Source of the DNA: a virus
Taxonomy: Duplodnaviria; Caudoviricetes
Reading direction: 5' to 3' (one strand)
DNA length: 32,399 nucleotides
Virus record (IMG/VR): IMGVR_UViG_3300025018_000086
Span: 1-32,399 of that record
Shown: in pieces, positions 200 to 28,241 of the stretch
Layout: the number at the start of each line of letters is the position of its first letter
Position numbering within the stretch: the stretch's first letter is position 1
Notes under the pieces: generated by a model
The model's database searches: none
What the model was told of the DNA's origin: nothing
Seen by the model: the letters and a program-made list of their open reading frames with translations, nothing else
Translations under genes and position numbers: made by a program

Positions 200-1789
200 A
201 TGCCGAATATACCGCAGCGCGAACCCTTTAGAGAGAGCGACCTAAGGCGACTAGAGAGCATTTATAAAAGTGCAGGCCGTAAGATTATGGCCACCTTTGA
301 CGAGCAGACCGACTTTGAACAGTTTAGGCGTGCTGGCATTATGCGCCAGATCGAGCAAATACTAGGCGAGGCAGGCGTGGAAACTGGGGCCTGGCTCGAC
401 GACGTACTGCCTGCTACCTACCAGCGTGGCACTGGCGACGTTATTAAGCAGCTAGGCACCATAAACGCCCCTATGCGCGAGGCTACGGCATTTAACGTAA
501 TAGACCGCCGTGCTGTGGAGGTCCTAGTTAGTGAAACGCAGGAGGCTTTTGCTACTGCGCTTACGACGGTGGGCCGCACAGCAGGCCAGCTACTGAGCCA
601 GGCCGTTAAGGACCAAATTACGCTAGAGATCGCAGAGGGTGCCCTAACGGGTGCAGGCCGCCGTGCCATATCGGACCGAGTAAAGGCCTCGCTTAAAGCT
701 GGGGGTGTTACTGGCCTTGTGGATAAACGGGGTGCTAAATGGGAGCTGGACCGCTACGCAGCCATGCTAGCCCGCACTAAGCTAATGGAGGCCCGCAATA
801 CTGGAGTGGCTAATAAAATGCTGCAGAACGGCTACGACCTCGTGGAGATCACGGGCGGCAACTCTACCCACAGCGCCTGCGCTAAATGGGAATATAAAAT
901 AGTAAGCCTTATGGGCAAAACTGAGGGCTACCCTACACTGGCCGACGCTAAGGCCGACGGCATATTCCACCCTAACTGCCAGCACCACTACAATATCGTC
1001 CACAGCAACCTGGCCGCTATGACCAAGGCATATAACCCTAATACTGGAATGTACGAAAAACCAAGCTGGGGCGAACCTCGCGCAGGCATACCGAGCGCTG
1101 CAGGTGGCCGCCAAACTAAAAAGAAAATTGCCGAGGGTGTTACCCGCGTAAGCAATGCAGGCAGCCAGACGCTCGTAGTGCCTAATGGTAAAAGCCAGCA
1201 GGTATTTAAACTAAGCCCGCTGGAGGCCCGCGTGGTCCGCGAAAACAATATCGTGCCAACAGCCAAGCCGCCGCGCAGCCGCTGGGCCCCTAACACACGT
1301 GGCGTATATTCTGAGCGACCTATTTACGACAGCAGCCGCCAAATTGTGGGCGTTACTCGCCAGCTACATATTAGGCCAGGACCTGCAGGCAAACGCGTGC
1401 AGCATACGGTATACCACGAAATAGGCCACGCGATCGACGCAATGAACGTACACACCGACGGCTACAATAGCGGGCAAAAACTAAACCGCCGTGCTGATAT
1501 ATTCGCAGCTATCCAGGCCGACAAAACAGCCATAGTGGCCGAGCGATTAAAGCGCGACCTGGCAGCCGACCTAACGCCCGAGGAGCTTACGCTCGTGGCC
1601 CAGGGCCGCACGGTCCGCAAGGTAAGCAAGGACGGCCGCACTGGCATATTTAGCATGGGCAAATGGGGAACGTATGCACGCAGCGAGAGCGAGGTATTTG
1701 CGGACGCTTACGGTGCCTGGCGTATGGACCCTAAGGGCTTTAAAAAGATCGCGCCCAATTTAACTAAAGTATTTGAGGAGCTACTATAA
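200..1789 (+). CDS. Minor head protein (MuF/minor capsid-like) with C-terminal zincin metallopeptidase domain
   Basis: Directly after portal; N-terminal part has ARTKLMEARN and C...HPNCQH motifs typical of minor capsid proteins; C-terminus has HEIGHAID and a downstream SESEVFADAY third-ligand motif. Confidence 0.85.
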   Translation: MPNIPQREPFRESDLRRLESIYKSAGRKIMATFDEQTDFEQFRRAGIMRQIEQILGEAGVETGAWLDDVLPATYQRGTGDVIKQLGTINAPMREATAFNVIDRRAVEVLVSETQEAFATALTTVGRTAGQLLSQAVKDQITLEIAEGALTGAGRRAISDRVKASLKAGGVTGLVDKRGAKWELDRYAAMLARTKLMEARNTGVANKMLQNGYDLVEITGGNSTHSACAKWEYKIVSLMGKTEGYPTLADAKADGIFHPNCQHHYNIVHSNLAAMTKAYNPNTGMYEKPSWGEPRAGIPSAAGGRQTKKKIAEGVTRVSNAGSQTLVVPNGKSQQVFKLSPLEARVVRENNIVPTAKPPRSRWAPNTRGVYSERPIYDSSRQIVGVTRQLHIRPGPAGKRVQHTVYHEIGHAIDAMNVHTDGYNSGQKLNRRADIFAAIQADKTAIVAERLKRDLAADLTPEELTLVAQGRTVRKVSKDGRTGIFSMGKWGTYARSESEVFADAYGAWRMDPKGFKKIAPNLTKVFEELL

Positions 1790-1917
1790 TGGCTGAAATA
1801 GACGCACACGCTATAGTAACGATCGTGCCACCAGACGGCGACGAGGAGGCGGCTATCGCTAAGACCGAGGCCGACCTAGACGAGGCCCTGGCTGAGGACG
1901 AACAGGCCGCCGAATAA
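1789..1917 (+). CDS. 42-aa acidic peptide, candidate immunity/inhibitor of the MuF peptidase
   Basis: ATG overlaps the upstream stop (TAATG); MAEIDAHAIVTIVPPDGDEEAAIAKTEADLDEALAEDEQAAE*; codon usage matches the genome. Confidence 0.7.
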   Translation: MAEIDAHAIVTIVPPDGDEEAAIAKTEADLDEALAEDEQAAE

Positions 1918-2064
1918 ATAAAGTGCACACGCTTGCAATGGTCCCGCCTGGCGTTTAAGGTAGGTAGGTGGCAAGCCCACACCGCGTGCAGCTGCGCGAT
2001 AAAATGCAATAGCCTGCGGTCCGAAACTTCCCTGGACAAACGCTGCAGAATTGAGGCTAAAGAG

Positions 2065-2086
2065 GTCCCCCCTGGGGGGCTTTTTT
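2065..2086 (+). terminator. Rho-independent terminator ending the portal/MuF transcript
   Basis: GTCCCC-CCTG-GGGGGC stem followed by TTTTTT. Confidence 0.75.
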
Positions 2087-2293
2087 AGTGTAAAAACCAC
2101 TTCCCCGACCACTTCCCCGCTGTTTTAACCCCCCCGTACAAATTTACAACACTTAACAGGGGTGGAGAGGGGGCACCACGGTAGGGTAGGGGAGTGGTGG
2201 CTAAGGTGTTAGCGCAAAAAATAGCGCGATCATAGGCTCGATAGGGGAGTGCCCCATAGCGCCCACTAATAGTAACCACTATACTAATCACTA

Positions 2294-2413
2294 ATGGACG
2301 ACAGACAACCCTGCGGAGCGCACGGCTCGGACCAAAACGGCCGCGCCATTTTCGATCATACCTGCGACGATTGTATGCTGCCCGAGCCACACCTCGACCC
2401 GCCCGAGCTGTAA
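2294..2413 (+). CDS. 39-aa putative zinc-binding microprotein
   Basis: MDDRQPCGAHGSDQNGRAIFDHTCDDCMLPEPHLDPPEL* (CxxH...CxxC); TATACT at 2280-2285, 8 nt before ATG. Confidence 0.5.
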   Translation: MDDRQPCGAHGSDQNGRAIFDHTCDDCMLPEPHLDPPEL

Positions 2414-2434
2414 TAACATAAGCCCTATTGCAGC

Positions 2435-2454
2435 TGTGGATAACTTGTGCAAAA
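2435..2454. promoter_or_regulatory. Tandem DnaA-box pair
   Basis: TGTGGATAA (2435-2443) and TGTGCAAAA (2446-2454); both match TTWTNCACA on the - strand, 11-bp period. Confidence 0.7.
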
Positions 2455-2516
2455 ATAGGGATAGCTTTAGCGTGTACGAGCACGTAAAAAGACGATACTA
2501 AAGTAAAGGAGTTACT

Positions 2517-3254
2517 ATGGACCCAGCCAACCAAAACGGAGCAGGTGCGGGCGACGCAGGCAACGGTGGCACCCCACCAGCAGGCGACGCGAACATTAAC
2601 AATAACGGCAACCAGAACCCAAACGGGAACGGAGCCAACGGCCAGGGATCGACCCCCCCTGCTAACGGAAACGGTAGCGGAAACGGCGCAGGCCAAGGCG
2701 ACGGGGGCGTGCAGCTTACCGACGAGCAGCTAGCCGCTGCGTTTAACCACCCGCGTTTTAAGTCCCTAAATGAACGGGCTAAAAAAGCGGACGAGTTAGA
2801 ACGCCAGCAGCAAGAGGCCGCCGAAAAAGCAGCCAAGGAGCAAGGAAAATTTGAGGACCTTTATAAGTCCGCAAATGAACGAGCCGAAAAGGCCGAGGCA
2901 GCAGCTAAGCAATTCCGTATTGAAAATGCGGTAAGCCTAGAGGCAGCCAAGCTGGGCGTAATTGACCCAGCAGCAGCTATTAAACTTATGGACCAGAGCG
3001 GCATACAAGTTAGCGACGACGGTGCAATAAGTGGAGTAGCTGAGGCAGTTAAAGCCTTGCAGCAGTCCAGCCCATACCTATTTAAAACGCCAGCGCAGGG
3101 CAGCGTAGGCGGGGGAGATACAAACCCAGCAGGCGGTGGCAACACAGCCAGCGAGTTTACCTACAGCCAGATACAGGACCTAGCTTTTTATAAAGCTAAC
3201 CAGCCTGCGATCGACAAGGCCGTAGCTGAGGGCCGTATTGACATGAGCAAGTAA
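2517..3254 (+). CDS. Capsid scaffolding protein
   Basis: Low-complexity G/N-rich N-terminus, coiled coil, PYLF motif near the C-terminus; precedes MCP; SD AAGGAG. Confidence 0.85.
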   Translation: MDPANQNGAGAGDAGNGGTPPAGDANINNNGNQNPNGNGANGQGSTPPANGNGSGNGAGQGDGGVQLTDEQLAAAFNHPRFKSLNERAKKADELERQQQEAAEKAAKEQGKFEDLYKSANERAEKAEAAAKQFRIENAVSLEAAKLGVIDPAAAIKLMDQSGIQVSDDGAISGVAEAVKALQQSSPYLFKTPAQGSVGGGDTNPAGGGNTASEFTYSQIQDLAFYKANQPAIDKAVAEGRIDMSK

Positions 3255-3341
3255 TTGCTCGGTAGTAACTTTGGCGCTTTAGTGGCGCAAAACCACACAA
3301 CCTACCAACCCATTTAAAAATAAGAAAGTGATTTAAATATC

Positions 3342-4256
3342 ATGGACAACAGTGCATTACTAGCAACTACGATTGCTAACAAAACTATTGGCTACTTTGG
3401 CAAGTACATGAACCTTGCAGCAACAGTAGCCCGCGACTGGGACTACGAACCAGCAACCGAGGGCGAGGCCGTAAAGATCGGTAAACGCGGTGCCCTTACA
3501 GCTAACACTAAGACAGCAGGCGGCGACGTTACCATGCAGAGCCCTGCAGCCACTGGCGTTACTGTTACCCTCGACACCCATAAAGAGGTAACTATCGACC
3601 TTACCGACGTTACTAAAGCTAAGCAGGCTAAAAAGCTCGACATTATGGAAGGCTACGCTAAAGACGCAGCAGCCGTATTGCTCGAAACTGTAGAGGACGC
3701 ACTTGCTGCCCTTTACGCCAGCCTTACTAGCACGGCCGTAACATTCGACGCTACTAGCACCGCAACTAAAAAGGCTAGCCTTTTGAACCTGCGCAAGGCG
3801 TTTACCGACGCTAAGGTGCCTAAGAGCGAACAGCGTTACCTTTACCTCGGTAGCCAGTCTACTACTGAGATCATGGAGGAAGATAGCTTTACACGTGTAG
3901 ACGCAGTAGGCCAAAACGAAACGCTGGAAAGCGGACAAATTGCCCGCCCACTCTTTGGCTTTAAGCCATTCGAGAGCCAGAGCGTCGTAGTTACTGGTAC
4001 TACCCCTACAGCTGTAGAGCACAATATCGCCTACACTAAGGACGCATTTGTAGTAGCCACTCGACCACTGCCAGCACCAGCTAGCGGCCTCGGAGTTATT
4101 AGCAACGTCGTCGTAGACCCTGAAACGGGTATTGCACTACGCACGATCTTAAGCTACAACAGCAACAAACTTGCTGAGCAGCTTACTATCGACTTGCTAT
4201 TCGGTGTTAAGGTCCTCGACCAGCGCCGCGCAATTCCGTTTAACCTTACTTACTAA
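3342..4256 (+). CDS. Major capsid protein (HK97 fold)
   Basis: 304 aa after scaffold; GEAVKI, VTVTLDTHK, GQIARPLFGF and DLLFGVKVL motifs; followed by a terminator. Confidence 0.9.
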   Translation: MDNSALLATTIANKTIGYFGKYMNLAATVARDWDYEPATEGEAVKIGKRGALTANTKTAGGDVTMQSPAATGVTVTLDTHKEVTIDLTDVTKAKQAKKLDIMEGYAKDAAAVLLETVEDALAALYASLTSTAVTFDATSTATKKASLLNLRKAFTDAKVPKSEQRYLYLGSQSTTEIMEEDSFTRVDAVGQNETLESGQIARPLFGFKPFESQSVVVTGTTPTAVEHNIAYTKDAFVVATRPLPAPASGLGVISNVVVDPETGIALRTILSYNSNKLAEQLTIDLLFGVKVLDQRRAIPFNLTY

Positions 4257-4278
4257 GGTTAGCCACTCGGTCCAGGAG

Positions 4279-4301
4279 AGCCCCAGCAATGGGGCTTTTT
4301 T
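4279..4301 (+). terminator. Rho-independent terminator after MCP
   Basis: AGCCCC-AGCAAT-GGGGCT followed by T run. Confidence 0.85.
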
Positions 4302-4350
4302 GGTGCTATAATTAAAACACAAACGTAATAAGTAAGAGGAGTAAATTTAT

Positions 4351-4902
4351 ATGGCCGAAACAAACGAACCGACCAACCAGCACGGGGACCCAGTAGACGA
4401 CAGCGTTATGCTGCTCGTAAACCCAGGGGGCCGCGTAGTAGCTGTAAATAAAGAACATGGCGAGCAACTGCTCGAGAGTGGCGACGGCTTTAAAAAGGCC
4501 CCTAAGGGCTCGCGTGAGGGCGACAGCCTGGACGCTAACGGCGAACCAGTCCACGCGCAAAACGAATTAGTGCCGCGCGGCTCGAGCGAGGAGGACGCTA
4601 AAAAGGTGGCCGAATTGCAGGGAACCCCTGAAAATGTACGCCGCCAGGCTGCAGCCGACCCTACTAACGATAATGTAGTTAGCACCCAGGGCCAGGAAAA
4701 CATGGACACCGACAAAAACGCCAGCGACCCAGGCGCAGGCGGTGTAGGCGATAGCAACACCGACAACGGCGACCACCCTAATACTACTGGCCAACCTAAT
4801 AGCACCGCTGCAGACGAGGCCGTAGTAAATGGCCAAGCCAGCACTGGCGACGCTAACGAAAACAAGGCAGGCCGCTTTTTCGGACGCGGTAAAAAGAAAT
4901 AG
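4351..4902 (+). CDS. Hypothetical acidic, largely disordered protein (head region)
   Basis: TGCTATAAT extended -10 at 4304-4312 and SD GAGGAG; short folded LLVNPGGRVVAV segment then D/N/G-rich tail. Confidence 0.75.
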   Translation: MAETNEPTNQHGDPVDDSVMLLVNPGGRVVAVNKEHGEQLLESGDGFKKAPKGSREGDSLDANGEPVHAQNELVPRGSSEEDAKKVAELQGTPENVRRQAAADPTNDNVVSTQGQENMDTDKNASDPGAGGVGDSNTDNGDHPNTTGQPNSTAADEAVVNGQASTGDANENKAGRFFGRGKKK

Positions 4903-4904
4903 CC

Positions 4905-5180
4905 GTGGCTGATCGCAGCAAAACTACCATGGTAATTAAGGAGCTCGTAGTGCCTGAGGGCACCGAGGACCTAGTAATTAACGTGGAGGCCCAGCGCGGC
5001 GATCATACCTATAAATTGCCCTACCATATTAAGGCGGCGAACGTGGCCAAATTTGACCGCGACGCACTTATGGCTCGAGTATTCGAGGACGTAGACGCTT
5101 TAGTAGAGCAGGACAATAAAAAGGCTGCCGTAGTATCGAGGCTCGAGGGCCTGGTGGGCAAAACAATTAAGCTAGACTAA
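4905..5180 (+). CDS. Hypothetical protein
   Basis: GTG start 2 nt after the previous stop; genome-typical codon usage. Confidence 0.7.
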   Translation: MADRSKTTMVIKELVVPEGTEDLVINVEAQRGDHTYKLPYHIKAANVAKFDRDALMARVFEDVDALVEQDNKKAAVVSRLEGLVGKTIKLD

Positions 5181-5202
5181 TAGGCACCTGTTTACCTAGC
5201 AA

Positions 5203-5230
5203 GCAGCACCCGCAAATAGGGTGCTGTTTT
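5203..5230 (+). terminator. Rho-independent terminator
   Basis: GCAGCACCC-GCAAATA-GGGTGCTGT followed by T run. Confidence 0.85.
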
Positions 5231-5234
5231 TATT

Positions 5235-5256
5235 GCGCTAGTGCTACAATAATGAT
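5235..5256 (+). promoter_or_regulatory. Leaderless extended -10 promoter with operator motif
   Basis: GCGCTAGTGC-TACAAT, then 6 nt, then ATG 5257; no SD. Confidence 0.7.
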
Positions 5257-5964
5257 ATGGAAACAGCACGCGGCTATTTAAGTAAAACAGAACTAACCAC
5301 CCTGGCCCCAGGCGTAACTGGCACCGACCCAGAAAAGCTGGCACTTATTGAACGTGCCGAGGCGCTGATCGACAGCTATATAGGCCGCCAGGACCAAGCT
5401 GTGCGCGAATTACGAGGCCTAGCCCGTGCAGGTGGCGCAAGTACCCTGCAGCTCGCAGCAGACGACACACAGGCCGCTAATGGCGTAAATTACCTAAAGG
5501 GCTGCACGATCGAGATTTTAGACGGTACAGGCGCAGGCGAGAGCAAGCGTATTGCTAGCCAGGCGATCGACGGCACCGTAACTACTGAGAGTGCATGGAC
5601 CACCGCGCCAGACGCTACCAGCTATTACCGCGTATACCAGGTGGGCAAATTACCCCGCCGTGCTACTGACTTAAAAAATGACACTGTGAACGGTGTAAAC
5701 ACCTACTTTAGAATTATCCCGCAAGTGGTAAAGCAGGCAGTGGCTGCCCAGGCCGAATATATCCAGCAAATGGGCGAGGCTTATTTTACTGGCGGCGACA
5801 GCAATATGCAGAGCGAGAGCAGCGACGGCTATAGCTACACTAGAGGGGAGAACGGCACGAACGGCAAGGGGCTTATAGCGCCTGCGGTCCGCAGCCTGCT
5901 AGCTGGGAGCGGTATTATAAACCGCACTGGCGGCGGTATTATCGTGCCTAATTCGATTTTATGA
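5257..5964 (+). CDS. Head-tail adaptor (SPP1 gp15-like) with inserted beta domain
   Basis: YLSKTEL...LIERAEALIDSYIG, IPQVVKQAVAAQAEY and SESSDGYSYT motifs. Confidence 0.75.
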   Translation: METARGYLSKTELTTLAPGVTGTDPEKLALIERAEALIDSYIGRQDQAVRELRGLARAGGASTLQLAADDTQAANGVNYLKGCTIEILDGTGAGESKRIASQAIDGTVTTESAWTTAPDATSYYRVYQVGKLPRRATDLKNDTVNGVNTYFRIIPQVVKQAVAAQAEYIQQMGEAYFTGGDSNMQSESSDGYSYTRGENGTNGKGLIAPAVRSLLAGSGIINRTGGGIIVPNSIL

Positions 5965-6302
5965 GCTACCTAAGCACCCTACAGCAAACAGCCACCCTAG
6001 AGCCTATTACGGGCACCGACGACTACAGTAAGCCGACTTTTGGCGCTGCTGTTACTATTAAGTGCCGCGTGGTCCTAAAAGGCGTTACTAAATTTGCCAG
6101 TATGCAGGGCCGAGGGTCCGCTAGCGAGCTTACTACAGTAAATGCAGTGGCGAGGGTCCCAGTAAACACCGTGGCCAGCGTAGGCGATAAATTTACATTT
6201 AACGGCGACGTGTATAAGGTAGTAGGCCGACGCGAAACCCCTAACCATAGTGGCCAGGTATTCGCATTAAACCTGGAGCTAGCACTATGGCCGCAGATGT
6301 AA
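5961..6302 (+). CDS. Head closure / head-tail stopper protein
   Basis: TDDYSKPTFG..IKCR and GDKFTFNGDVYKV beta-rich pattern; synteny. Confidence 0.7.
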   Translation: MSYLSTLQQTATLEPITGTDDYSKPTFGAAVTIKCRVVLKGVTKFASMQGRGSASELTTVNAVARVPVNTVASVGDKFTFNGDVYKVVGRRETPNHSGQVFALNLELALWPQM

Positions 6303-6652
6303 AAATAGAGCTCGACGTAAGCGACTTTTTGCGCACGATCGACAAAACACTGCCAGCTTTTTTAAAGGCTAGCGACAAGGCCGAGGACGAGATCGCGGAC
6401 GAGGTGCTGCGCCTGAGTGGCCACGAGGTCCCTAAGGACGAGGGCGTGCTGGAGGGCACGGGAGTAGCAGACCGCGACGGCCAGGGCGCTTTTGTGGGCT
6501 ACAATACCCCGTATGCTGCCAGGCTGCACGAGCACCCAGAGTACGCTTTTCAAAAAGGCCGTAAAGGTAAATACCTCGAGGACCCTATTAAAGAAAACCT
6601 AAAACCACTGGGCGAGCATTACGTAAGCACGGTACAGGAGGCCCTGAAATGA
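6287..6652 (+). CDS. HK97 gp10-like neck / tail-completion protein
   Basis: VPKDEGVLEGT, VGYNTPYAARLHE and GKYLEDP motifs. Confidence 0.8.
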   Translation: MAADVKIELDVSDFLRTIDKTLPAFLKASDKAEDEIADEVLRLSGHEVPKDEGVLEGTGVADRDGQGAFVGYNTPYAARLHEHPEYAFQKGRKGKYLEDPIKENLKPLGEHYVSTVQEALK

Positions 6653-7023
6653 ACATAATAAAAGCCGTTAAAACATTGCTAGTGGACGCTGGCGTTACTA
6701 CCCCTATTAAAATGGGCAAACAACCAGACAGCCCCGTAGCAGTTATTACTATCCTGGACACTGGCGGCCCGCCGCCTGATATGGAGCTTACAGTGGTCCG
6801 CGAGCCGACATTCCAGCTACTGATTAGGGCGGCCGACTACGAGGCTGCTAAAGCGATCGCTGACTTATGCTGCGCTGCGCTGCACGGTAAAATTGCCGTA
6901 GCCGCTGAGGGGGTCCACTTTTTGAATATCGGACTATTAGCAGAGCCTGGCAGCCTGGGCGATAATGAGCGTGGCGAGCACGAATTTAGCGCCAACTTTA
7001 AGGCCAAGGCCCGAGAGGCCTAG
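6649..7023 (+). CDS. Tail terminator protein
   Basis: PDSPVAVITILDTGG, PTFQLLIRA and LGDNERGEHEFSANF motifs; synteny. Confidence 0.75.
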   Translation: MNIIKAVKTLLVDAGVTTPIKMGKQPDSPVAVITILDTGGPPPDMELTVVREPTFQLLIRAADYEAAKAIADLCCAALHGKIAVAAEGVHFLNIGLLAEPGSLGDNERGEHEFSANFKAKAREA

Positions 7024-7024
7024 C

Positions 7025-7261
7025 ATGGCAAAAGTTACCTGGGACCAGAATTTTGACCGCGAATTTGATAAAAAACACCTACGGGAGTGGCGCTGCAGCA
7101 AGTGCCGCAAACTGCTGGCTATGGAGTACGTGCACAGCGGCAATATAGCCATTAAATGCCAGTGCGGCGAGCTTAACAGGCTTATGTTTAAGTCCCTGGC
7201 ACATAATGATACAATTACTACAGCAACCCCCGCGGGTGGCAAGCATAATAAAACTAAGTAG
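7025..7261 (+). CDS. Mu Com-like zinc-ribbon protein
   Basis: EWRCSKCRKLLA...IAIKCQCGELN resembles the Com family pattern; ATG 7025 follows the previous stop. Confidence 0.65.
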   Translation: MAKVTWDQNFDREFDKKHLREWRCSKCRKLLAMEYVHSGNIAIKCQCGELNRLMFKSLAHNDTITTATPAGGKHNKTK

Positions 7262-7273
7262 GAGGACCATTTT

Positions 7274-7786
7274 ATGGCCGACGCAACAAAAATTGCACTG
7301 GGCGTATGTACTGGAACCTTTGACAGCGTAGCGCTAGGACACACTAAGGGTGGTGTTGAGTGCGTTTATGAGCCAGTATGGCACGATGTTAAGGTGGACC
7401 AATACGGCGACAGCATTGTAAAAAAGCGCCTTATGGGCGAGAAATTTACGGCTAAGGTACCACTTGCCGAATATACAGTAGCTAACCTGGGTATTGGTAT
7501 TCCAGCTGGCACCGTCGTAGGCACGACTGTAAAGCGCCTCGACGTAGGTAGCAGCGCAGGCAAGTCTAGCGACGACCTCGCAGCCACTTTGGTATTAACA
7601 CCAGTGGACGCTACAGGCGACGAGCACACTATTACCATTCCTAAGGCAATGGTAGGCAGCCAGGTAACACTAAGCCACGTAAACGACGGCGAGCGAGTTA
7701 TCGAGTGTACTTTTGAGGCTATTATCGACGAGAGCAAGGCAGACGGCGCACGCCTGTTTAGCATTGGCGACCCAGCAGCAGCCTAA
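7274..7786 (+). CDS. Major tail tube protein
   Basis: LGHTKGGVE, VKVDQYG and KVPLAEYTVANL motifs; SD AGGAGG; position before chaperones. Confidence 0.85.
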   Translation: MADATKIALGVCTGTFDSVALGHTKGGVECVYEPVWHDVKVDQYGDSIVKKRLMGEKFTAKVPLAEYTVANLGIGIPAGTVVGTTVKRLDVGSSAGKSSDDLAATLVLTPVDATGDEHTITIPKAMVGSQVTLSHVNDGERVIECTFEAIIDESKADGARLFSIGDPAAA

Positions 7787-7856
7787 GCACCAAAACTAAC
7801 TAGAGGGCCAATATAGAGCCCCTGCCCTACGGGGCTAAAAAGGAGATCGCGCAATT

Positions 7857-8270
7857 ATGGCAGACACGCCAGTAAAAACTATTACAGTAGAGCTAAGCGA
7901 CGGCAAAACCGTGGAGCTAAGCCTGCTACCCCTAAAATACTATGCGGACCTGCTTAAGGCAGTTACTGGTAGTATTAAAGACATTTTCGAGAACTGGGAC
8001 GGCGTAAGCAATGACCAGATTATCGAGCAGCTACCTACGTTTATTAGTGAACACATGGACGACGCTGCGACTATCGTAAGCGTGGCCACCCGCGGCGAAA
8101 TATCAAAAAAGGACGTACTCGAAACCTACGGGCTCGCTGACGCTGTAGAGATCATTACGGGCGCATTGCAAGTAAATGACGTAGAGCGCATTATGGGCTC
8201 GCTAAAAAAAGCAGCGGCGGTATTCCGCAAGCCCAAAACGGGCAAGCACAGCCAGGGGAGCCAAGCCTAA
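7857..8270 (+). CDS. Tail assembly chaperone (gpG-like)
   Basis: Between MTP and TMP; slippery A AAA AAA at 8204-8210. Confidence 0.8.
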   Translation: MADTPVKTITVELSDGKTVELSLLPLKYYADLLKAVTGSIKDIFENWDGVSNDQIIEQLPTFISEHMDDAATIVSVATRGEISKKDVLETYGLADAVEIITGALQVNDVERIMGSLKKAAAVFRKPKTGKHSQGSQA

Positions 8271-8623
8271 GCAAGGCCCAGCTCGACCACTACCGCAAGA
8301 ATTCCGAACAAATAATAGACGACTGGCTATTTAGTAATGTAGACCTGCTATCGAGCGAGTACGGCTGGCCGCTCGAGCAGGTGTATTATCATGTATACCC
8401 TACGGACCTGCCGCACTTAAAAAACCGTATCGAAAAACGCCACAAGGTAAAAATACGCGAGCAGCTGATCGTGGCATACAATAGCCAGGACCGCGAACTA
8501 ACGCAAAAGCTGCTAGACGAGCTGCAGGACCACGACGAGAGCTACGTAAATAGGCCCTACAATAAAACGGCTGTGGAGCTGTTTAAAAACCAGGTGGCAC
8601 GAAATAGGGTATTTGCTAAATAA
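8204..8623 (+). CDS. Tail assembly chaperone gpGT extension via -1 frameshift
   Basis: -1 frame is open from the A7 run to TAA 8623 (SSGGIPQ...LLSSEYGWPLEQVYY...). Confidence 0.8.
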   Translation, partial: KKSSGGIPQAQNGQAQPGEPSLSKAQLDHYRKNSEQIIDDWLFSNVDLLSSEYGWPLEQVYYHVYPTDLPHLKNRIEKRHKVKIREQLIVAYNSQDRELTQKLLDELQDHDESYVNRPYNKTAVELFKNQVARNRVFAK

Positions 8624-8626
8624 AAG

Positions 8627-8652
8627 TAACGCGCTAGTGCTACAATTATGGT
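8627..8652 (+). promoter_or_regulatory. Leaderless promoter/operator of the tape measure gene
   Basis: TAACGCGCTAGTGC-TACAAT-TATGGT-ATG; 22 nt identical to the portal promoter. Confidence 0.75.
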
Positions 8653-10647: not shown

Positions 10648-10648
10648 T

Positions 10649-12578: not shown

Positions 12579-12621
12579 TAAAATTTAAAGTATTAGTGCT
12601 AAAATATAGCTAGAGGATAAT

Positions 12622-13736: not shown

Positions 13737-13737
13737 A

Positions 13738-16624: not shown

Positions 16625-18031
16625 ATGGGATATAGATTAGACTGGGTAGCAAGCCCAAACTTTACACCTGGTGCACAGACCCAGGCATTTTACGGCCGAC
16701 CCCGCAGCATAATTGGCGGCGCAGGCCACTGGTGGAACTGGCCCCGCAGCGGTGCTAACCACGACGGCATAGTGGCCTATATGGCAAACGCAGCACGCCA
16801 GGCGGCACCGCACGCGGTCCTAAGCGCTGAGCGTGTTACTGAAATGGTCCGCGACTGGGATACTGCCTGGTGCACAGCTGCAGCAAACCCGTATACTTTT
16901 GCTATCGAGATCGACCCCCGCATTATGTTTAAATGGGGCTACGACAACCCCAGCGCTGCAGAGCGTGCCCTGGGCGAGCGCATATTCCAGACGCTATGCG
17001 AATATATAGCCGACAAGGGCTATGCTAATTTGCCATGGAAACCGCACAACGTATGGGCACCTGGCACCCAGTGCAACCCTATACCTTACGACGAGGTTAT
17101 GGCTCGAGCCCGCCAGATCGTGGCCGAGCGTGCAGCACCTAAGGTAAAAGAGCAGAGCCGCGACGTATATAGCCCTACTAAAAAGTTTATTGTGGTCCGC
17201 GACTGCATACTCGAAAACATACCAGGCGGCGGCAAGGTGGGCGACAAAACCTACAGAGCTGGCGAGCTGATCGACATAAAGCAGCGCCTTGTAATGACCG
17301 ACGGCAGCGTATGGTACCGCACGCCGTATAGCTCGGACAATGAGCTGGCCACTGGCTTTAGAGATCAAAACATAGACGAATACGTGCCGACCCCTGAGTG
17401 GCAAAAAAACCTAGTGGACACGGCCGACGTAAAGCTATACGTACTGCCAGCAGAGGGCACGCCTGTAATAAACTTATCCACAGGCCAGCCAATACCTGAG
17501 AGCGTAATAGCTAAAGGTACCGCGGTGGATATTGCTAAGACGACGACCGTAGGCGGCAAGCGCTACCTTATTAGCTCGTATGCTGCTAGCCGCGCAATGC
17601 CAAACGGTATACTGGCCGACCACCTGGGCGCACTTGCTGAGCCGCCTAAACAGGAAAAACCAGAATGGCTGCAGCACCTGGACGACATCGAGGACGTAAC
17701 AATGTACACCCGTGCCGAGGTCCCGCTAGTAAACTTGCTCGACGGTAGCACGATTAAAATGCTGCCAATAAATACGCCTGTAGAGATCGCAACAGCCACC
17801 GAGTGGGGCGGTAACGATTATATGCTGAGCAAATACGCAACCGACAAGGGCCTGCCGCACGGTATACTCGTGGCCCATTTAGACAAGGACCCAATTAAGC
17901 AGCCTGATACCCCAGCAGAACCAGCCCCAGAGCAGCCAAGCCTGGAGCAGCGCGTAAGCGCCCTGGAGCGTATCGTGGCCGCTATTAAAAAGTGGGTAAA
18001 AGACAAATTTAACATAGATTTAGGAGTATAA
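16625..18031 (+). CDS. Endolysin: N-acetylmuramoyl-L-alanine amidase (Amidase_2-like) with repeated C-terminal binding domains
   Basis: SPNFT, GHWW, PHAV, DTAW..AN...AIEI and PH...TQC zinc-amidase motifs; three SH3-like repeats. Confidence 0.88.
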   Translation: MGYRLDWVASPNFTPGAQTQAFYGRPRSIIGGAGHWWNWPRSGANHDGIVAYMANAARQAAPHAVLSAERVTEMVRDWDTAWCTAAANPYTFAIEIDPRIMFKWGYDNPSAAERALGERIFQTLCEYIADKGYANLPWKPHNVWAPGTQCNPIPYDEVMARARQIVAERAAPKVKEQSRDVYSPTKKFIVVRDCILENIPGGGKVGDKTYRAGELIDIKQRLVMTDGSVWYRTPYSSDNELATGFRDQNIDEYVPTPEWQKNLVDTADVKLYVLPAEGTPVINLSTGQPIPESVIAKGTAVDIAKTTTVGGKRYLISSYAASRAMPNGILADHLGALAEPPKQEKPEWLQHLDDIEDVTMYTRAEVPLVNLLDGSTIKMLPINTPVEIATATEWGGNDYMLSKYATDKGLPHGILVAHLDKDPIKQPDTPAEPAPEQPSLEQRVSALERIVAAIKKWVKDKFNIDLGV

Positions 18032-19053: not shown

Positions 19054-19692
<639 letters not shown>

Positions 19693-19734
19693 TTACTATT
19701 ATACCAAAAGCATTATGGCGGGAAATTTGCGCAG

Positions 19735-19823
19735 GGTCCGCACCCCTGTAACGCTTAGGCTTATCCACAGAGTTTTACACAGGTTATGCACAATTTACAG
19801 GGGCGGTAGGCTTGCAGCGGACC
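19735..19823. other. Putative replication origin element: three tandem DnaA boxes inside inverted repeats
   Basis: TTATCCACA 19761, TTTTACACA 19773, TTATGCACA 19784; flanked by CCCCTGTAA/TTACAGGGG and GGTCCGC/GCGGACC. Confidence 0.65.
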
Positions 19824-20040
19824 ATTGCCGCGTAGTATTATCGAGAGGCCGAGCAATACGAACCATTGCACGGCGGGTAAAACATTAACGCCAAATTTAG
19901 CGTGCTATATTGCTAGCATAGCTGCTATTTTTGGCCCTATAAAAACTAAAACCGCTACGCGAGGTAACGGCTAGCTTTTGTATTGAGTAAATGCAATACG
20001 AACCAGTTACCAGTATAGGGGTGGAACAGGGAAAAAGCAA

Positions 20041-20364
20041 GTGCAAACACGCAACAATTGGCAATTGCCAGCTGAGGGTAAAAACCATAAAACACAATTG
20101 TCAATTGACAACTGTAGGCCTAAGCCCGAGCAGGTAGATTATGCGATCGAACAAATACAGGACCTAATTACAATGCCGACGCTAAAACCGTGGTATTGCA
20201 GCGCAGCCTATAAGCTAGGCGTTACCAAACTGCTGCAGCTGGCCAGTATCGCCAGGGCTGACGGCAAGGACAAGCCTAAATTTTTTAGCTATTTGATTAA
20301 CAGGGAACTAAAAAAGCACCGTGCTGCGGAGATGCGCCAACCCAGCACGGTACTTACCCCATAA
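20041..20364 (+). CDS. Small helical protein, putative replication initiator / DnaD-C-like domain
   Basis: WYCSAAYKLG...LASIARADGKDKPKFFSYLINREL resembles C-terminal domains of phage initiators; iteron-like repeats in its 5' end; adjacent to DnaA boxes. Confidence 0.45.
   Translation: MQTRNNWQLPAEGKNHKTQLSIDNCRPKPEQVDYAIEQIQDLITMPTLKPWYCSAAYKLGVTKLLQLASIARADGKDKPKFFSYLINRELKKHRAAEMRQPSTVLTP
20055..20114. repeat. Two triplets of 7-bp-period CAATTG-like repeats (iteron-like)
   Basis: CAATTGgCAATTGcCAGCTG at 20055-20074 and CAATTGtCAATTGaCAACTG at 20095-20114. Confidence 0.75.
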
Positions 20365-20398
20365 TAAGGGCTGTGGAAAACTTAAGCAATAATGACTA

Positions 20399-20440
20399 TT
20401 GCATAAGTAACACAAGCGAGTTATTATAGATAACACAAGC
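20399..20440 (+). promoter_or_regulatory. Sigma70-type early promoter with operator in the spacer
   Basis: TTGCAT-17-TATTAT; TAACACAAGCGAGTTA at 20408-20423 and a partial copy TAACACAAGC at 20431. Confidence 0.75.
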
Positions 20441-21378: not shown

Positions 21379-22968
21379 ATGGCTAAAGCCAAAACTACTA
21401 AGAAAAAGACCGAGCCCGTAGAGGCTGAAACGGTCCAGGACCAGACACCACCACCAGAGGCACCGCCTGTGGATAACTCGCCTGCTGAGGGGGAGATTAT
21501 GGACCCTAACGAAATTAAAGCTATAGAGCAGAACGCTAAAGAGCTCGAGAGCGCCCTCGTGGCCCACCCAGGTATGGAAGTGGTGCCAGGCGTTACTACG
21601 GACCAGCTGCGTAATGCACTGGGTGCCCAGACCGAGCAGCGCGTGCTTATTAAGCAATTTATCCAGCACCACCTCGTGCCAGATGTAGATTTTGGCCATA
21701 TCCACGTAGTGAAAAACTGCGCGAACCAATACAGCTGTACGAACCGCTACCACTTTGGCAAGGATATGCTATTTAAGCCTGGCCAGGAAAAGATTTTTAG
21801 CCTATTCGGTATTACCAGCGTGCTAGAGCGCGACGAGGAAACCTACAAAATGCTGCCAGACACTAAAAACCTCGTGGCCTACCTATGTAAGGCAATGCGT
21901 GGCGATCGTGTAGTAGCTGAGGGCCGCGGTGCTGCAGTCCTGGGCGATAAAGGCCGCGACGTAAACAGCACTATTAAGATCGCTGAAAAACGGGCCCGTA
22001 TGGACGCGTGCCTGGCATTAGGCTTTAGCGAATACTTTAGCCAGGACCTCGACGACCCAGACTATGCAGGCCAGCGCGAGCAGGCTAACCAGCGTGCCGC
22101 TGCAGAGCTCGCAGCAAAACACCCAGAGGAAATGCCACCCGAGCCAGTCCCACCTAAGCCAGGCGATAATTTGAAACCACGCCCAGCTATGGAGCTCGCC
22201 AGCCAGGAGGAAAAGGCCGAACTCTACAAGGCATTTTTAAAGGCTGGCCTCGATAAAGACGAGCAGCTGGAGGTCCTAGCAGTAAATGGTATTACCGTAC
22301 CTGCTGAAATGACCAGCGGCGCAGCTCGCGGCATGATACGTAAGCTAAACGAAAATGCTTTTAAACGGCCAGAGCCTAAGAGCCAGGACGTAGTAATAGA
22401 CGATATTAGCGACGAGGCCGTAAACCTGGACGACCTGCCAGACTTTAACGGCACGCCGCCCGCAGCGCCCGCAGCGCCCGCCGCAGCACCTAAGCCCGTA
22501 GAGGTCCCGCCGCTTGTGGTGGACGCAGACCTAAAAAACTGGATAGCCGAGCAGCTAGTAGCTGTAAACTTAAATGCACGGGGCCTAATGTGGTATAAGC
22601 GCCTAGTAACAGGTAAACCCTTTGGCAACCCGCAGCAGTGGAGTGATAGCGAATGGCGCAAGGCCTACGAGGTCCTGCAGGATATACTCGACGTAAAAAT
22701 AGAGGTAGACGACAGCTATTTTAAAAGCGAGGACGAACTAAAGGCCGAGGTAGACCAGACCGACGCGGAAAAGGTGGCCGCAATGTTCCCAGGTGCTGAG
22801 ATATTGCCTGTGGATAACTCTAAGCCTGCCGACCCGCCGCGAGCGGTCCCAGCGAATGGTGGCGACGACGATATAGTAACGAATGAACCACCAGCCGACG
22901 CTACGGGCCCTGTACAGCAAACTATAGACGATCGCCCCCGCACCGAGGGCGACCCCCGCGACATTTAG
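21379..22968 (+). CDS. Putative single-strand annealing recombinase (Rad52-like) with long C-terminal extension
   Basis: DFG...LFKPGQEK...VAEGRG...NSTIKIAEKRARMDA...FSQDLDD; promoter/operator at 21328-21347; SD AAGGAG before ATG 21379. Confidence 0.6.
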   Translation: MAKAKTTKKKTEPVEAETVQDQTPPPEAPPVDNSPAEGEIMDPNEIKAIEQNAKELESALVAHPGMEVVPGVTTDQLRNALGAQTEQRVLIKQFIQHHLVPDVDFGHIHVVKNCANQYSCTNRYHFGKDMLFKPGQEKIFSLFGITSVLERDEETYKMLPDTKNLVAYLCKAMRGDRVVAEGRGAAVLGDKGRDVNSTIKIAEKRARMDACLALGFSEYFSQDLDDPDYAGQREQANQRAAAELAAKHPEEMPPEPVPPKPGDNLKPRPAMELASQEEKAELYKAFLKAGLDKDEQLEVLAVNGITVPAEMTSGAARGMIRKLNENAFKRPEPKSQDVVIDDISDEAVNLDDLPDFNGTPPAAPAAPAAAPKPVEVPPLVVDADLKNWIAEQLVAVNLNARGLMWYKRLVTGKPFGNPQQWSDSEWRKAYEVLQDILDVKIEVDDSYFKSEDELKAEVDQTDAEKVAAMFPGAEILPVDNSKPADPPRAVPANGGDDDIVTNEPPADATGPVQQTIDDRPRTEGDPRDI

Positions 22969-23804: not shown

Positions 23805-24071
23805 ATGGCGGCCGAGCAAAACCCCTACAGCGACCCTAAGGCTAAAATATACGGCCCTGAGGTCCTGCAGGAATTCGACGCAGACGACACGCGGGCGATC
23901 GTAGCAGCCCACGGCGAGGCCATACTGGAATACTACGACGAACATAAAGCAACCGACTGGACCGACGCGGACACCTTACGCCTGTTAAATACCAGGCTGG
24001 GCCGCCAGGTCCTAAACAAAATACGGCTGCGCCACAATGTGGATAAATTTAAAGGATATTTTAGGAGATAG
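23805..24071 (+). CDS. Hypothetical protein
   Basis: Operon packing, codon usage. Confidence 0.7.
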   Translation: MAAEQNPYSDPKAKIYGPEVLQEFDADDTRAIVAAHGEAILEYYDEHKATDWTDADTLRLLNTRLGRQVLNKIRLRHNVDKFKGYFRR

Positions 24072-24075
24072 CGCC

Positions 24076-25173
24076 ATGGACCAAAAGCCAAAAGTTAGCT
24101 TATCTGTAAAGGGTAGCGACGGTAAAGTGCAGAAAATTGCGGACGATATTAACAACCTAAGCCCAGAGGGCCGAGCGATCGCTAAGGGCATTGTAGATAC
24201 ACTGGCCAGTAGCCACGCGCCTAAATTCAAGCCAGTGGACGTATTCCAGTGGGCCAATAATACCGACGCATTTAAAAACGAGCTCGACCTGCAGCTATTC
24301 GTATTTAGCAAAAACCTTACGCCATACTCGGTGCAATTCGGTCCTGAGCTAAAGCACAAAATACTAGCCCTATTTGTTTACGACATTATTAACGCCGTAG
24401 CTATGGGCGCTGCGACAGGTATGCAGGTGCGCAATTACGTAGAGGCTGCAGCAGACGACCTGGCAGTGCTCGAAATTAGTAGCGAAAAGCAAGAGAGCCG
24501 CCGCGCTAGTACGGTCCTGTGGCTTATTGAAAAGGAGCGCCAGGACATTACCGAATTTAACGAGGCTGAGCACGACTATAAGCGCCTAAAGGGCATGGTG
24601 CTGCGCTGCGTGGCCCCAGGCGGTAAAGTATTCCACGTGTTTAAGCAATTTAAGGCCACTGCTGCGGTCCAGGGCGGCAAGGACTTTGTACTGCAAAAGG
24701 ACAAGCTGCAGCAATTTACCCAGGACCTCGCTTTTAAGATCGACCCCACTAACCAGGTGCTGGCTGTGGATAACTCGCTATTTATTTTTAGCCAGAGCAA
24801 ATACGAGGCGCTTTTTGATACTAAGCCCCACATGATAGCCCGCGCTAATGAGAATGGCCGACAGATCGACAAGCTATTTAAATTAAGTATGCCGCTCGTG
24901 GTCCCAGAGATCGCCATAATGGCCCAGACCGACAAAACAGCCACTAAAAAGCTGAGCGAGGTAAACCCTGGGCTTATGAGCCAGGAGGAGGTGCTAAACG
25001 CTGCGGACGAATTTGCTATCGAGCTTATGACCGACGACAGCGGCGCAATTATCCTAATGGACAGCAAGGACGTAAAAACCTTTTTGGATATTCTACTGGA
25101 TAACTACGTGCACGGGTCCACTGGCATACCATACGTAGCGAAAAGCAAAAAAGAGCTGGAGCCTGAGGAATAA
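24076..25173 (+). CDS. DUF4868 / Kiwa KwaB-like protein
   Basis: FKID...LFIFSQSKYEALFD and C-terminal KTFLDILLDNYVHGSTGIPYVAKSK resemble the DUF4868 family; SD AGGAG before ATG 24076. Confidence 0.65.
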   Translation: MDQKPKVSLSVKGSDGKVQKIADDINNLSPEGRAIAKGIVDTLASSHAPKFKPVDVFQWANNTDAFKNELDLQLFVFSKNLTPYSVQFGPELKHKILALFVYDIINAVAMGAATGMQVRNYVEAAADDLAVLEISSEKQESRRASTVLWLIEKERQDITEFNEAEHDYKRLKGMVLRCVAPGGKVFHVFKQFKATAAVQGGKDFVLQKDKLQQFTQDLAFKIDPTNQVLAVDNSLFIFSQSKYEALFDTKPHMIARANENGRQIDKLFKLSMPLVVPEIAIMAQTDKTATKKLSEVNPGLMSQEEVLNAADEFAIELMTDDSGAIILMDSKDVKTFLDILLDNYVHGSTGIPYVAKSKKELEPEE

Positions 25174-26059: not shown

Positions 26060-26275
26060 ATGGACAATAACGAACCCAAAACAGAGGCCAAGCACACCGT
26101 ACAGCAAGGTATTGCCTACCAGACCGTAGACGGCGCTATTACGCGTAATTACGTGGTCCTAGGCGGTAAAAGGGTGTACGTATTCGGAGCGCAGCCAGGC
26201 GACGAGCTAAGCAAGTCCCAGGCCCGCCGAATGAGCCACGCGCCTAAGCCTGTGGAAAACTCTAGCGAGGAGTAG
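26060..26275 (+). CDS. Hypothetical protein, likely leaderless
   Basis: TGCTATAAT at 26044-26052, 7 nt before ATG 26060. Confidence 0.65.
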   Translation: MDNNEPKTEAKHTVQQGIAYQTVDGAITRNYVVLGGKRVYVFGAQPGDELSKSQARRMSHAPKPVENSSEE

Positions 26276-26278: not shown

Positions 26279-26614
26279 GTGCTAATACTGGCACTATCCG
26301 CTACTGGCATAAACCCCGCCCTGGCTAGGGATAATTTACTCGTGCACAATATGCTTACTGCGGCCATGAGCCGCTGTAATGCTAAGATCACTAAATACAG
26401 CCACTACACCCGCGAGCGCAGCGGGCTTTTTGAGGTATTTGCGGACGACGAAACCGTAATGCTTACCTACCGAGCCGAGCGCAGCGGCGATATTTACGTA
26501 ATGGTAACGGACTACGACGGCGGGGACCCTAAGCCTGCACTAGAGGTAATTGTGGATAACTTACGCCCTAAGGAGCATAATTACAAAATTTTGCTTAAAA
26601 AAGGGCTTGACTGA
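26279..26614 (+). CDS. Degenerate S-adenosylmethionine decarboxylase (SpeD/SpeH)-like protein
   Basis: Pattern G-INPAL-x-D...L..A...NAKI...H....SG...E...GDIYV.V.DYDGGDPKPALEVIVDNLRPK matches the short AdoMetDC architecture by eye, but ESH and Cys are absent; SD GAGGAG. Confidence 0.5.
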   Translation: MLILALSATGINPALARDNLLVHNMLTAAMSRCNAKITKYSHYTRERSGLFEVFADDETVMLTYRAERSGDIYVMVTDYDGGDPKPALEVIVDNLRPKEHNYKILLKKGLD

Positions 26615-26636
26615 AATAACACAAGCGAGTTATACT
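26607..26636 (+). promoter_or_regulatory. Sigma70-type promoter with operator in the spacer
   Basis: TTGACT-18-TATACT; TAACACAAGCGAGTTA at 26617-26632, identical to the 20408 copy. Confidence 0.8.
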
Positions 26637-26677
26637 ACTGTTATAACCAAATTAGATCATAGAAAGGCATTAAAACT

Positions 26678-26884
26678 ATGACAACTACAGCAACCGAACC
26701 AAAAACCTGCGACCACAAGCTATTTAACTGTAATTGTTGGTACGTAGTAAACACGGCCGACAATACCCTAATACACCGCGCCGTAAGCTACGACGTAGCA
26801 AACCAGTGGCGACTAGCGCAGCCAGACGCTGCAGTGCTTAAAATGACACCATGGGCCCACAGCCGCGAGCTGATCGCCCGCTAA
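26678..26884 (+). CDS. Hypothetical small protein with Cys/His motif
   Basis: SD AAAGG; CDH....CNC. Confidence 0.7.
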   Translation: MTTTATEPKTCDHKLFNCNCWYVVNTADNTLIHRAVSYDVANQWRLAQPDAAVLKMTPWAHSRELIAR

Positions 26885-27009
26885 TATGCGGGTCCTGGGC
26901 ACGACCCTATAAACTGCCTTGCCACGTGATATGCAGCCCAAGCGGCCCACTGGACCGCCAGGAGTGCACAGCACTACGAACCAAATAAATAAGAGAGGGT
27001 AAAAGCGCC

Positions 27010-27237
27010 ATGGTACAAACTACCAAAACACAAAAACACCAATTTAAAACAATGTTTAGCGAGCTATTTGCTAACTACGATAAAGGCACGAGCCAGTACG
27101 GCCGTAAATTTGTGGTAGCTGTATGCTGGGTAGGATATTACACTGCCGCCTTTTTGGCAGTGCTGCTATTCGTCCCTGGGCTACTATATAAAGCCGCTAA
27201 AACAGCGTACCGAGTAACTAAGGAGGGGAGGGCTTAG
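27010..27237 (+). CDS. Small membrane protein
   Basis: SD GAGGG; hydrophobic FVVAVCWVGYYTAAFLAVLLFVPGLL. Confidence 0.7.
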   Translation: MVQTTKTQKHQFKTMFSELFANYDKGTSQYGRKFVVAVCWVGYYTAAFLAVLLFVPGLLYKAAKTAYRVTKEGRA

Positions 27238-27243
27238 GCCACG

Positions 27244-27840
27244 ATGAAACAGTGCTTATTTTGCTACGAAAAATTAAACGATCGCCAGGCAGCTATACGC
27301 CACCTGGAGGTAGCACACCAATTAGTAAAGGCTGCAGTGCCGCAGGACGGCAACCCAGGCGACTTTTACCAGCCAGAGGGCTGTAGTAACTGGCAACCTG
27401 GCGACAAGCGCTGCAGGTGCTGCAAGGGCTCGCTACGCATGAACTGGCACAGCCTGAGCCCCGCACTCGTGGACCTATTAGCAATAGCTGGGCGACGAGT
27501 TAAGGAGCAGGGCGGCCTAAATGAGATACACAAGCGGGACCTCGAGCTAAACACTAGCCAATACGGCAATTTTCAAAAGCTGCGCTATTTTGGCCTGATT
27601 ACCCACGTAGACGACGAGGGCACCGCCTGGCTTATTACTAGGCAGGGCTGGAGCTTTTTACGGGGCGACTGGCAGGCAGCTAGCCGCGTGCAGACGTACC
27701 AAAACCGCATAATGCAGCGGGACCCTAAACGGGTAACGGTCCACGACGTAATGCGCAAACGCGACCAGGTAGAATACTGGCCAAGCGCCCGCGACTTTGA
27801 TTTTGAGCTCGCTAGTCCGCAGCTGGGGCTTGCCCTATGA
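27244..27840 (+). CDS. C2H2 zinc finger + winged-helix DNA-binding protein
   Basis: CLFC-x12-H-x4-H; NFQKLRYFGLI...WLITRQGWSFL winged-helix pattern. Confidence 0.6.
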   Translation: MKQCLFCYEKLNDRQAAIRHLEVAHQLVKAAVPQDGNPGDFYQPEGCSNWQPGDKRCRCCKGSLRMNWHSLSPALVDLLAIAGRRVKEQGGLNEIHKRDLELNTSQYGNFQKLRYFGLITHVDDEGTAWLITRQGWSFLRGDWQAASRVQTYQNRIMQRDPKRVTVHDVMRKRDQVEYWPSARDFDFELASPQLGLAL

Positions 27841-28241
27841 TCGCAACAGATAAAAGCCTGCTAATGGAGCAGCTGCGCATTGTAGGTAGTATAGGCAAGG
27901 TCCAGCCAGCGCAGGAGTTTAGGGCGGCACCGTGGCACCTAGCGCAAGCTATGGGCGACGACCTCGTAAACTTTACTTTTGGTACCTGCGACGGGCTTAT
28001 GCGCGTCCTGGACGGTACGCTGGGCCTGATTGCAATAAATAACGAGGTAAAAGGTAACGGCCAATTTAAACAATTTATGCAGTTTTTCGAGGAGCTTGCG
28101 GCGGCAATGTATTTAGATACTAGCGTGCTCGAGATCGAGAATAGACGCCTATATAAGCACCTTGTGGAAAAGTGGGGCTATATCGACTATAAAGCACCTG
28201 GCAGCACTGGGCTAAACCTGATTAAAAGGGCTGCTAAATGA
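27837..28241 (+). CDS. Putative GNAT-fold acetyltransferase
   Basis: LIAINNEVKGNGQFKQFM (motif A-like) and N..LYKHLVEKWGY (motif B-like). Confidence 0.5.
   Translation: MIATDKSLLMEQLRIVGSIGKVQPAQEFRAAPWHLAQAMGDDLVNFTFGTCDGLMRVLDGTLGLIAINNEVKGNGQFKQFMQFFEELAAAMYLDTSVLEIENRRLYKHLVEKWGYIDYKAPGSTGLNLIKRAAK

Follow-up and report, generated by a model that had tools for sequence, protein, structure and literature searches.

Dispersed in-gene and tandem DnaA boxes in an uncultured phage genome and their possible role as a DnaA sink and late-gene switch

The stretch of DNA analysed here (hereafter the window), the 32,399 nucleotides (nt) of IMG/VR record IMGVR_UViG_3300025018_000086, is the complete circular genome of a siphovirus-type phage, consisting of 32,272 base pairs (bp) and a 127-nt end overlap, and carries many copies of the 9-mer known as the DnaA box. 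Its GC content is 52%, and the 127-nt end repeat is a coding overlap. The recognised genes encode a portal, terminase, scaffold, capsid, tape measure, amidase, Rpf-like transglycosylase and KwaB-like protein, and none of the 51 open reading frames (ORFs) matched integrase, polymerase, helicase, primase or partition families. An Rfam search gave no match. Named phages are remote, with at most 28% identity in the best 20 of 369 matches and less than 60% in all 369. The phage or near strains were found in aquifer and wastewater runs from 14 studies, one of which may have supplied the window, with contigs that vary by strain; it is an uncultured groundwater and wastewater phage.

We defined a perfect box as TTATCCACA and a variant box as TTWTNCACA. 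The initial annotation had reported 11 perfect boxes and six variants, all of which we recovered at the same coordinates and on the same strands. The perfect 9-mer is the commonest 9-mer in the genome. Dinucleotide shuffles yielded a mean of 0.06 boxes and a maximum of 1 (n = 100), Markov models of order 2–4 predicted 0.09–0.6, and a codon-order shuffle gave a mean of 0.18. Protein-keeping synonymous shuffles gave a mean of 0.515 and a maximum of 3 (n = 2,000), against 10 counted (9 distinct, as box 24038 lies in an ORF overlap and is counted twice), which bears out the claimed enrichment; chance and codon bias as causes of the boxes are ruled out by these shuffles. The density of 3.4 boxes per 10 kilobases (kb) compares with 53 boxes in 2.48 megabases (Mb), or 0.21 per 10 kb, across 147 other terminase-bearing loci (each at least 10 kb, not dereplicated), the highest of which reaches 2.5. 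The boxes are dispersed, as had been proposed, but not evenly so across the genome, since positions 2455–16353 contain none.

Nine of the 11 perfect boxes lie within ORFs, and the recurrent peptides attributed to them are correct. The in-frame perfect boxes at 16354–16362 (+ strand) in the Rz-like gene and 17474–17482 (+) in the amidase gene both encode LST and were not seen in the complete relatives G003 and G004, which have about 78% nucleotide identity to the window. The others lie on the − strand: 718–726 (minor head gene, LVDK; kept in G001, G003 and L172, lost in G004), 16437–16445 (Rz-like gene, PVDNS; kept in G003), 21468–21476 (gene for a 532-amino acid (aa) protein, PVDNS), 22809–22817 (same gene, PVDNS; kept in G004, a W-position variant in G001), 24038–24046 (overlap of two ORFs, NVDK and MWIN; a TTWTNCACA variant in G004, lost in G001, G003 and L172), 24765–24773 (KwaB-like gene, AVDNS; kept in G004 and L172) and 26551–26559 (IVDNL; kept in G001, G003 and G004). 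Two in-frame variant boxes on the same strand lie at 26251–26259 (PVENS; perfect in G003 and G004) and 28163–28171 (LVEK; kept in L172). All in-gene boxes are single: their best partners have four to six mismatches, the same as background.

Boxes on the same strand and 2–3 bp apart occur at 2435/2446 and 19761/19773/19784, and these conserved non-coding boxes sit on predicted promoters, a tandem arrangement and placement that the initial annotation overlooked. The double box at 2435–2454 (−), upstream of the scaffold and capsid genes, pairs a perfect box (2435–2443) with a variant (2446–2454) across a 2-bp spacer. It takes up the 17-bp spacer and runs into the −10 element of a sigma-70 promoter predicted by eye at 2428–2456 (+; TTG-start hexamer, 17-bp spacer, AAAAAT). 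Both the double box and this parse are kept in all five sequences of the clade comparison (G002 repeats G004 and is uncounted). Of 10 distant relatives, four also have the double box at this place, on the same strand and with the same spacer (weakly in one), at scaffold identities of 32–35%; a sister phage with a DnaA-trio origin (described below) has it as well. The triple box at 19761–19792 (+; spacers of 3 and 2 bp) separates the early operon from the divergently oriented Rpf-like gene and is kept with substitutions in G003 and G004. A single non-coding variant box at 20372–20380 (−), conserved in G003 and G004 and lacking a tandem partner, lies 18 bp upstream of another promoter predicted by eye (20399–20427). 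The tandem sites use variants and spacers found in arrays beside dnaA in host-type genomes.

The coding boxes are under selection at the DNA level. Peptides of the form xVD[NK] are box-coded in 7 of 7 cases in the window, 6 of 8 in each of G003 and G004, and 2 of 3 and 3 of 3 in two fragments (counts across genomes share sites), although GTG accounts for only 20–28% of Val codons and GAT for only 16–24% of Asp codons. The initial annotation had suggested looking for conservation at synonymous sites, and it is present: all 6 distinct sites at which the peptide is kept retain all three synonymous bases, against a joint background of 0.14 per site, and where the peptide is altered the synonymous bases have moved too. 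The tolerated single changes sit at the W position (26251, 22809). A T two bases after the in-frame box occurs at 12 of 14 distinct sites, against 0.105 expected, and extends the match to the datA and oriC flanks in Table 1 of PMC11317965 (cited here, like the sources below, from excerpts of the text). From these patterns, the motif is selected as a DnaA box, beyond the encoded protein. The sites themselves turn over. G003 and G004 have 9 and 8 perfect boxes, several of them at sites with three to five differing bases in the window, and the total stays near 8–11 across relatives, which suggests that box number matters more than box place.

It is highly improbable, in our view, that the word serves a function other than DnaA binding, being read by another protein or accumulated by a mutational or uptake-type drive. 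Such an explanation draws on the palindromes CTGCAG and CGATCG, strongly over-represented in the whole window (44 and 33 copies), because their abundance means that other word-level forces act on this genome, and on the fact that DnaA binding to the boxes is predicted from sequence. The exact consensus, the tolerance at W, the 2–3-bp tandem spacing, the host-oriC variants and the trio origins of sister phages nevertheless all indicate DnaA, and one-mismatch neighbours of the box, the W variant excepted, are not piled up. The richness in CGATCG is common to the trio-origin sisters.

The strand pattern described initially, in which polarity flips at about 19.8–20.3 kb, is correct for the window but is not conserved in G003 and G004, because the forward in-gene boxes at 16354 and 17474 are absent from both; the flip is thereby ruled out as an origin marker. 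On the coding strand of relatives, the TGTG-first orientation prevails almost without exception (8:0, 11:1 and 12:1). By hand count, independent in-gene perfect sites split 14:2 by orientation (p = 0.002 against 50:50; p = 0.03 against the 0.63 share expected from codon shuffling). Distant relatives have both orientations, and the extremes of GC skew disagree between genomes. Polarity is thus a weak clue, with boxes seeming to follow the coding strand modestly beyond coding bias.

The host is probably a member of the Patescibacteria, within which Saccharibacteria are the likely group, judging from gene relatives. A terminase relative at 51% identity carries the label Saccharimonadales, Rpf matches include names from Saccharibacteria and Actinobacteria, and members of the family of the ORF starting at 20041 are encoded by 13 of the 351 genomes examined in the class of G613, with 3 of 12 regions examined lying near small-terminase or tape-measure homologues. 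We provisionally take this class to be Saccharimonadia on the basis of a DnaA motif and the presence of Rpf; an atlas check did not settle the assignment. The order of G005 is Parcubacteria-type, although its record title says Saccharibacteria, and among 401 Parcubacteria-type genomes other than G005 no close prophage was found, the best terminase matches having E values of 1e-32 to 1e-46.

The density comparison proposed in the initial annotation shows the phage to be far richer in boxes than these chromosomes. The class of G613, to which the host belongs only probably, holds 1,846 perfect boxes in 251 genomes of about 0.4–2.2 Mb, or 7.4 each (highest, 45 in 2.2 Mb), so that a single phage copy would carry more boxes than the host-class mean. 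The flanked 12-mer is present in 6 copies in the phage, versus 370 in 201 genomes of the phylum (maximum 12 per genome). Parcubacteria-type genomes hold 4,609 perfect boxes (n = 251). Host tallies include the unpublished genomes G259 and G598, and no claim depends on either alone. Box coding of xVD[NK] is 4 of 47 in 28 regions of the class of G613, eight of these regions having been chosen because they hold boxes; in 396 kb of genome G026, where 24 of 29 boxes are non-coding, it is 1 of 37. A box-rich host chromosome that the phage might mirror was not found among the genomes searched. Many of the non-coding boxes of G026 (L276–L295) share a longer conserved flank, which suggests that this Parcubacterium carries repeated copies of a promoter element with a DnaA box.

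The initial annotation described the phage as having no recognisable replication enzymes. This holds for polymerase, helicase and primase, but the ORF at 20041–20364 (+) encodes a 107-aa stand-alone replisome-organiser (DnaD-like) C-terminal domain, aligned by HHalign (99.5%) to residues 180–251 of P0393, whose N-terminus (residues 1–174) matches PHROG DnaD-like helicase loaders. No called ORF matched the N-terminal domain in PHROG, Pfam or NCBIfam. Fold comparison of the 107-aa protein scored 2i5u at Z 5.4 (root-mean-square deviation 2.8, 62 aligned) and 2zc2 at Z 4.7, both lower than unrelated structures, and Foldseek with the model gave no match at E 0.001. The family comprises about 100 mostly stand-alone proteins of 70–125 aa (50% clusters), unnamed in Pfam and PHROGs; it was not found in G989 or in four trio-origin records, the latter being fragments. 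Upstream lies a conserved non-coding leader (19848–20040, +) with alternative predicted hairpins (three sequences, covariation term 0.12) and a 12-nt motif present twice, one internal segment being complementary to both copies. It probably regulates the ORF that follows it and resembles an attenuator or an antisense-controlled rep leader. Within 20310–20355, 44 bases are invariant in three genomes and make up a 13-bp inverted repeat that covers the 3′ end of the ORF.

DnaA-trios occur beside none of the boxes in the window, G001, G003 or G004, and an AT-rich tract is likewise absent, GC-rich sequence following position 19792. Trios are present in host loci L354 and L361 and in loci of sister phages. 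The box-plus-trio pattern was found in 54 viral loci, five of which share 5–11 genes with the window (two look like one phage), and all five have tandem boxes, a short spacer, trios and an AT-rich tract. In these loci (L393, L400, L406, L414, which equals L372, and L431), a full oriC-type unwinding module follows the tail block, and the modules are, from their composition, probable host-DnaA origins. In L393 and L400, the origin separates the tail block from the homologue of the ORF at 21370 and so occupies the interval that contains the triple box in the window. Because sister phages carry the full unwinding module at the syntenic site, the family appears to engage DnaA. Roughly 20 of the 54 loci (L384–L437) show several boxes close by but lack a dnaA motif, which suggests that oriC mimics are common in phages, and three unrelated viral contigs (L363, L366 and L371) carry arrays of 6–12 DnaA boxes in about 200 bp.

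The syntenic position of the triple box gives some weight to a replicative role, in which DnaA at the triple box would make up for the origin-binding domain that the 107-aa protein lacks, and the oriented in-gene boxes would be helicase-loading or restart sites. DnaA-dependent helicase loading is known from pBR322. The ORF next to the triple box does lack the N-terminal domain of full replisome organisers, and all but two of the 16 independent perfect sites within genes point the same way. We nonetheless consider this role quite unlikely: the boxes are followed by neither trios nor an AT-rich tract, stand-alone family members in host genomes come with 0–1 perfect box per 9–60-kb region, the orientation bias is modest once coding is allowed for in the null, G986, G987 and G989 show mixed orientations, and GC-skew extremes differ between genomes. 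Of the roles put forward in the initial annotation, titration fits best; recruitment for DnaA-driven unwinding is unsupported, because no trios follow the boxes of this clade though its sisters have them.

We tentatively propose, giving it somewhat less than an even chance, that the phage genome acts both as a sink for DnaA and as a switch that turns on late genes according to copy number. The boxes would form two tiers, single in genes and tandem at predicted promoters, through which the phage would gauge its own copy number by way of host DnaA. DnaA on the double box would block the promoter of the capsid operon; replication, starting from the 19.8–20.4-kb module of leader and lone replisome-organiser domain, would multiply the in-gene boxes and soak up free DnaA; and the lowered level of free DnaA would release the capsid promoter and make host initiation slower. 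At the triple box, DnaA would be a regulator or helper and not the unwinding protein. Since the number of boxes is conserved and their place is not, the in-gene boxes fit a sink, and since the place conserved over long range coincides with a promoter-like element ahead of the capsid genes, the double box fits an operator. DnaA binding, promoter activity, repression (not activation) and the effect on host replication are the steps that we infer. Extra-origin boxes titrate DnaA in Escherichia coli (PMC12371093) and restrain initiation in Bacillus subtilis (PMC3245932), and E. coli DnaA needs 2–3-bp tandem spacing in vivo (PMC11317965).

Sink, decoy, recruitment and roadblock are not mutually exclusive. 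The boxes may act as a decoy only, starving host oriC and perhaps DnaA-dependent sisters, with the tandem boxes as strong sinks or activators and no late switch. The maintenance of box number through site turnover, the excess of one phage copy over the mean host total and the presence of trios in sisters and not in this clade are all in keeping with a simple decoy. We judge it unlikely, as it leaves unexplained why the double box is held at the scaffold gene across 32–35% identity, including in a trio-origin sister. In a more elaborate scenario, the clade would have dropped its sisters' DnaA-driven oriC mimic and recoded its genes into a DnaA sponge that, with every round of replication, drains the initiator of a tiny-genome host, turns on capsid genes without a phage activator and excludes DnaA-needing co-infecting relatives, a protein-free host takeover and late-gene schedule written in synonymous codons; this strikes us as rather unlikely. 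The trio-origin fragments have no perfect box away from the origin and 0 of 4 xVD[NK] box-coded; these fragments, however, consist largely of tail genes, in which the clade of the window is also poor in boxes.

DnaA on in-gene boxes could also act as a transcription roadblock, damping elongation in early and lysis genes until diluted. Roadblock termination by DnaA was reportedly described by Schaefer and Messer, and the active orientation is said to have the TTWT strand as template, as in this phage. The 13-kb structural block holds just 3 of 19 independent sites (p = 0.02), and roadblock termination is described in PMC11317965. Box positions turn over freely, however, protein constraint alone could exclude boxes from structural genes, and the perfect in-gene guaB box is unbound in E. 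coli in vivo (PMC11317965), so that we hold roadblocks to be very doubtful.

Several observations weigh against the proposed sink and switch. Only 13 of 32 consensus boxes in E. coli lie in bound regions, and the unbound guaB box counts here as well (PMC11317965); in slow-growing E. coli, titration scarcely affects the transcriptional role of DnaA (PMC12371093). The double box ahead of the scaffold gene is missing from six of the 10 distant relatives, and a consensus scan called neither predicted promoter (2428–2456 or 20399–20427). Dispersal of boxes is graded, peaking in this clade, and seems not to be tied to trio loss, because G995 (87% complete, with a DnaA-trio origin) has 3 perfect and 2 variant boxes outside the origin and box-codes 1 of 7 xVD[NK], and G989 has 4 perfect boxes and box-codes 2 of 6. 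The Parcubacteria-type genome G120 (L250–L255) reaches 147 perfect boxes by means of a non-coding repeat, and perfect 9-mers undercount usable host sites. Finally, no CRISPR or prophage link to a host was found and lineage labels conflict, so that the host is a probable one only. The G120 boxes are often inverted pairs 24 or 32 bp apart, in a repeat not shared by 60 relatives searched.

In the cited excerpts, E. coli dispersed boxes and datA likewise provide many consensus boxes off the origin, proposed to lower free DnaA during copying (PMC12371093; 10.64898/2026.05.06.723188), but the system here is a phage with 11 perfect boxes in 32 kb, mostly within codons, versus 32 in the whole E. coli genome (PMC11317965). 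Extra-oriC clusters of B. subtilis restrain initiation and in some cases regulate neighbouring genes (PMC3245932); they are chromosomal clusters, whereas the phage has single in-gene sites and small tandem sites. The double boxes of E. coli purH, polA and nrdA resemble those of the phage in pairing a perfect and a variant box on the same strand, 2–3 bp apart, upstream of a gene (PMC11317965); unlike them, the phage boxes precede capsid and early genes, where regulation is putative. The nearest phage case found is T5, whose injection-stop region, as in T5-like phages, has conserved box pairs spaced by 3 bp (10.1101/866236). In T5, the boxes are confined to a single non-coding region of the terminal repeat, where inverted repeats enclose them (10.1101/866236), whereas the window has no such region, its boxes are mostly coding, and neither of its tandem sites has a T5-type inverted-repeat frame. 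The full basal unwinding sequence of oriC, which consists of two boxes and DnaA-trios (PMC10201434), occurs in sister phages at the position syntenic with 19761–19792; in the clade of the window, the boxes are kept and the trios are not. We found no literature report of dispersed in-gene DnaA boxes, or of a DnaA operator on phage capsid genes, in a survey judged mainly by titles and abstract openings that partly missed 'bacteriophage' wording. The boxes thus look like a real, selected variant of DnaA titration and operator systems, apparently new in its dispersed in-gene form, whose function we infer.

If the proposal is true, a virus steers a host regulator by DNA words hidden in codons and not by a protein, and genome copy number sets the timing of late genes. 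The debated titration model of DnaA could be tested on this phage as it occurs in nature, because it is a foreign replicon that holds its count of single boxes steady as their positions shift. Single boxes, held to be poorly bound in E. coli, are strongly selected in this probable Patescibacteria system, which also hints at how phages of bacteria with reduced genomes replicate with almost no replication genes.

Three further genes deserve mention. A motif suggests that the 532-aa protein may be a strand-annealing protein; its single-sequence fold reached a predicted local distance difference test score of only 39. The KwaB-like gene (24037–25173) belongs to the Kiwa defence family below the NCBIfam cut-off, occupies a variable slot and is missing from the G001 and G003 alignments. 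The Rpf-like transglycosylase gene lies at 19054–19596 (−); upstream of it, the open frame continues into a stretch resembling a signal peptide, where a possible non-standard start follows a perfect extended −10 element near 19698–19706.

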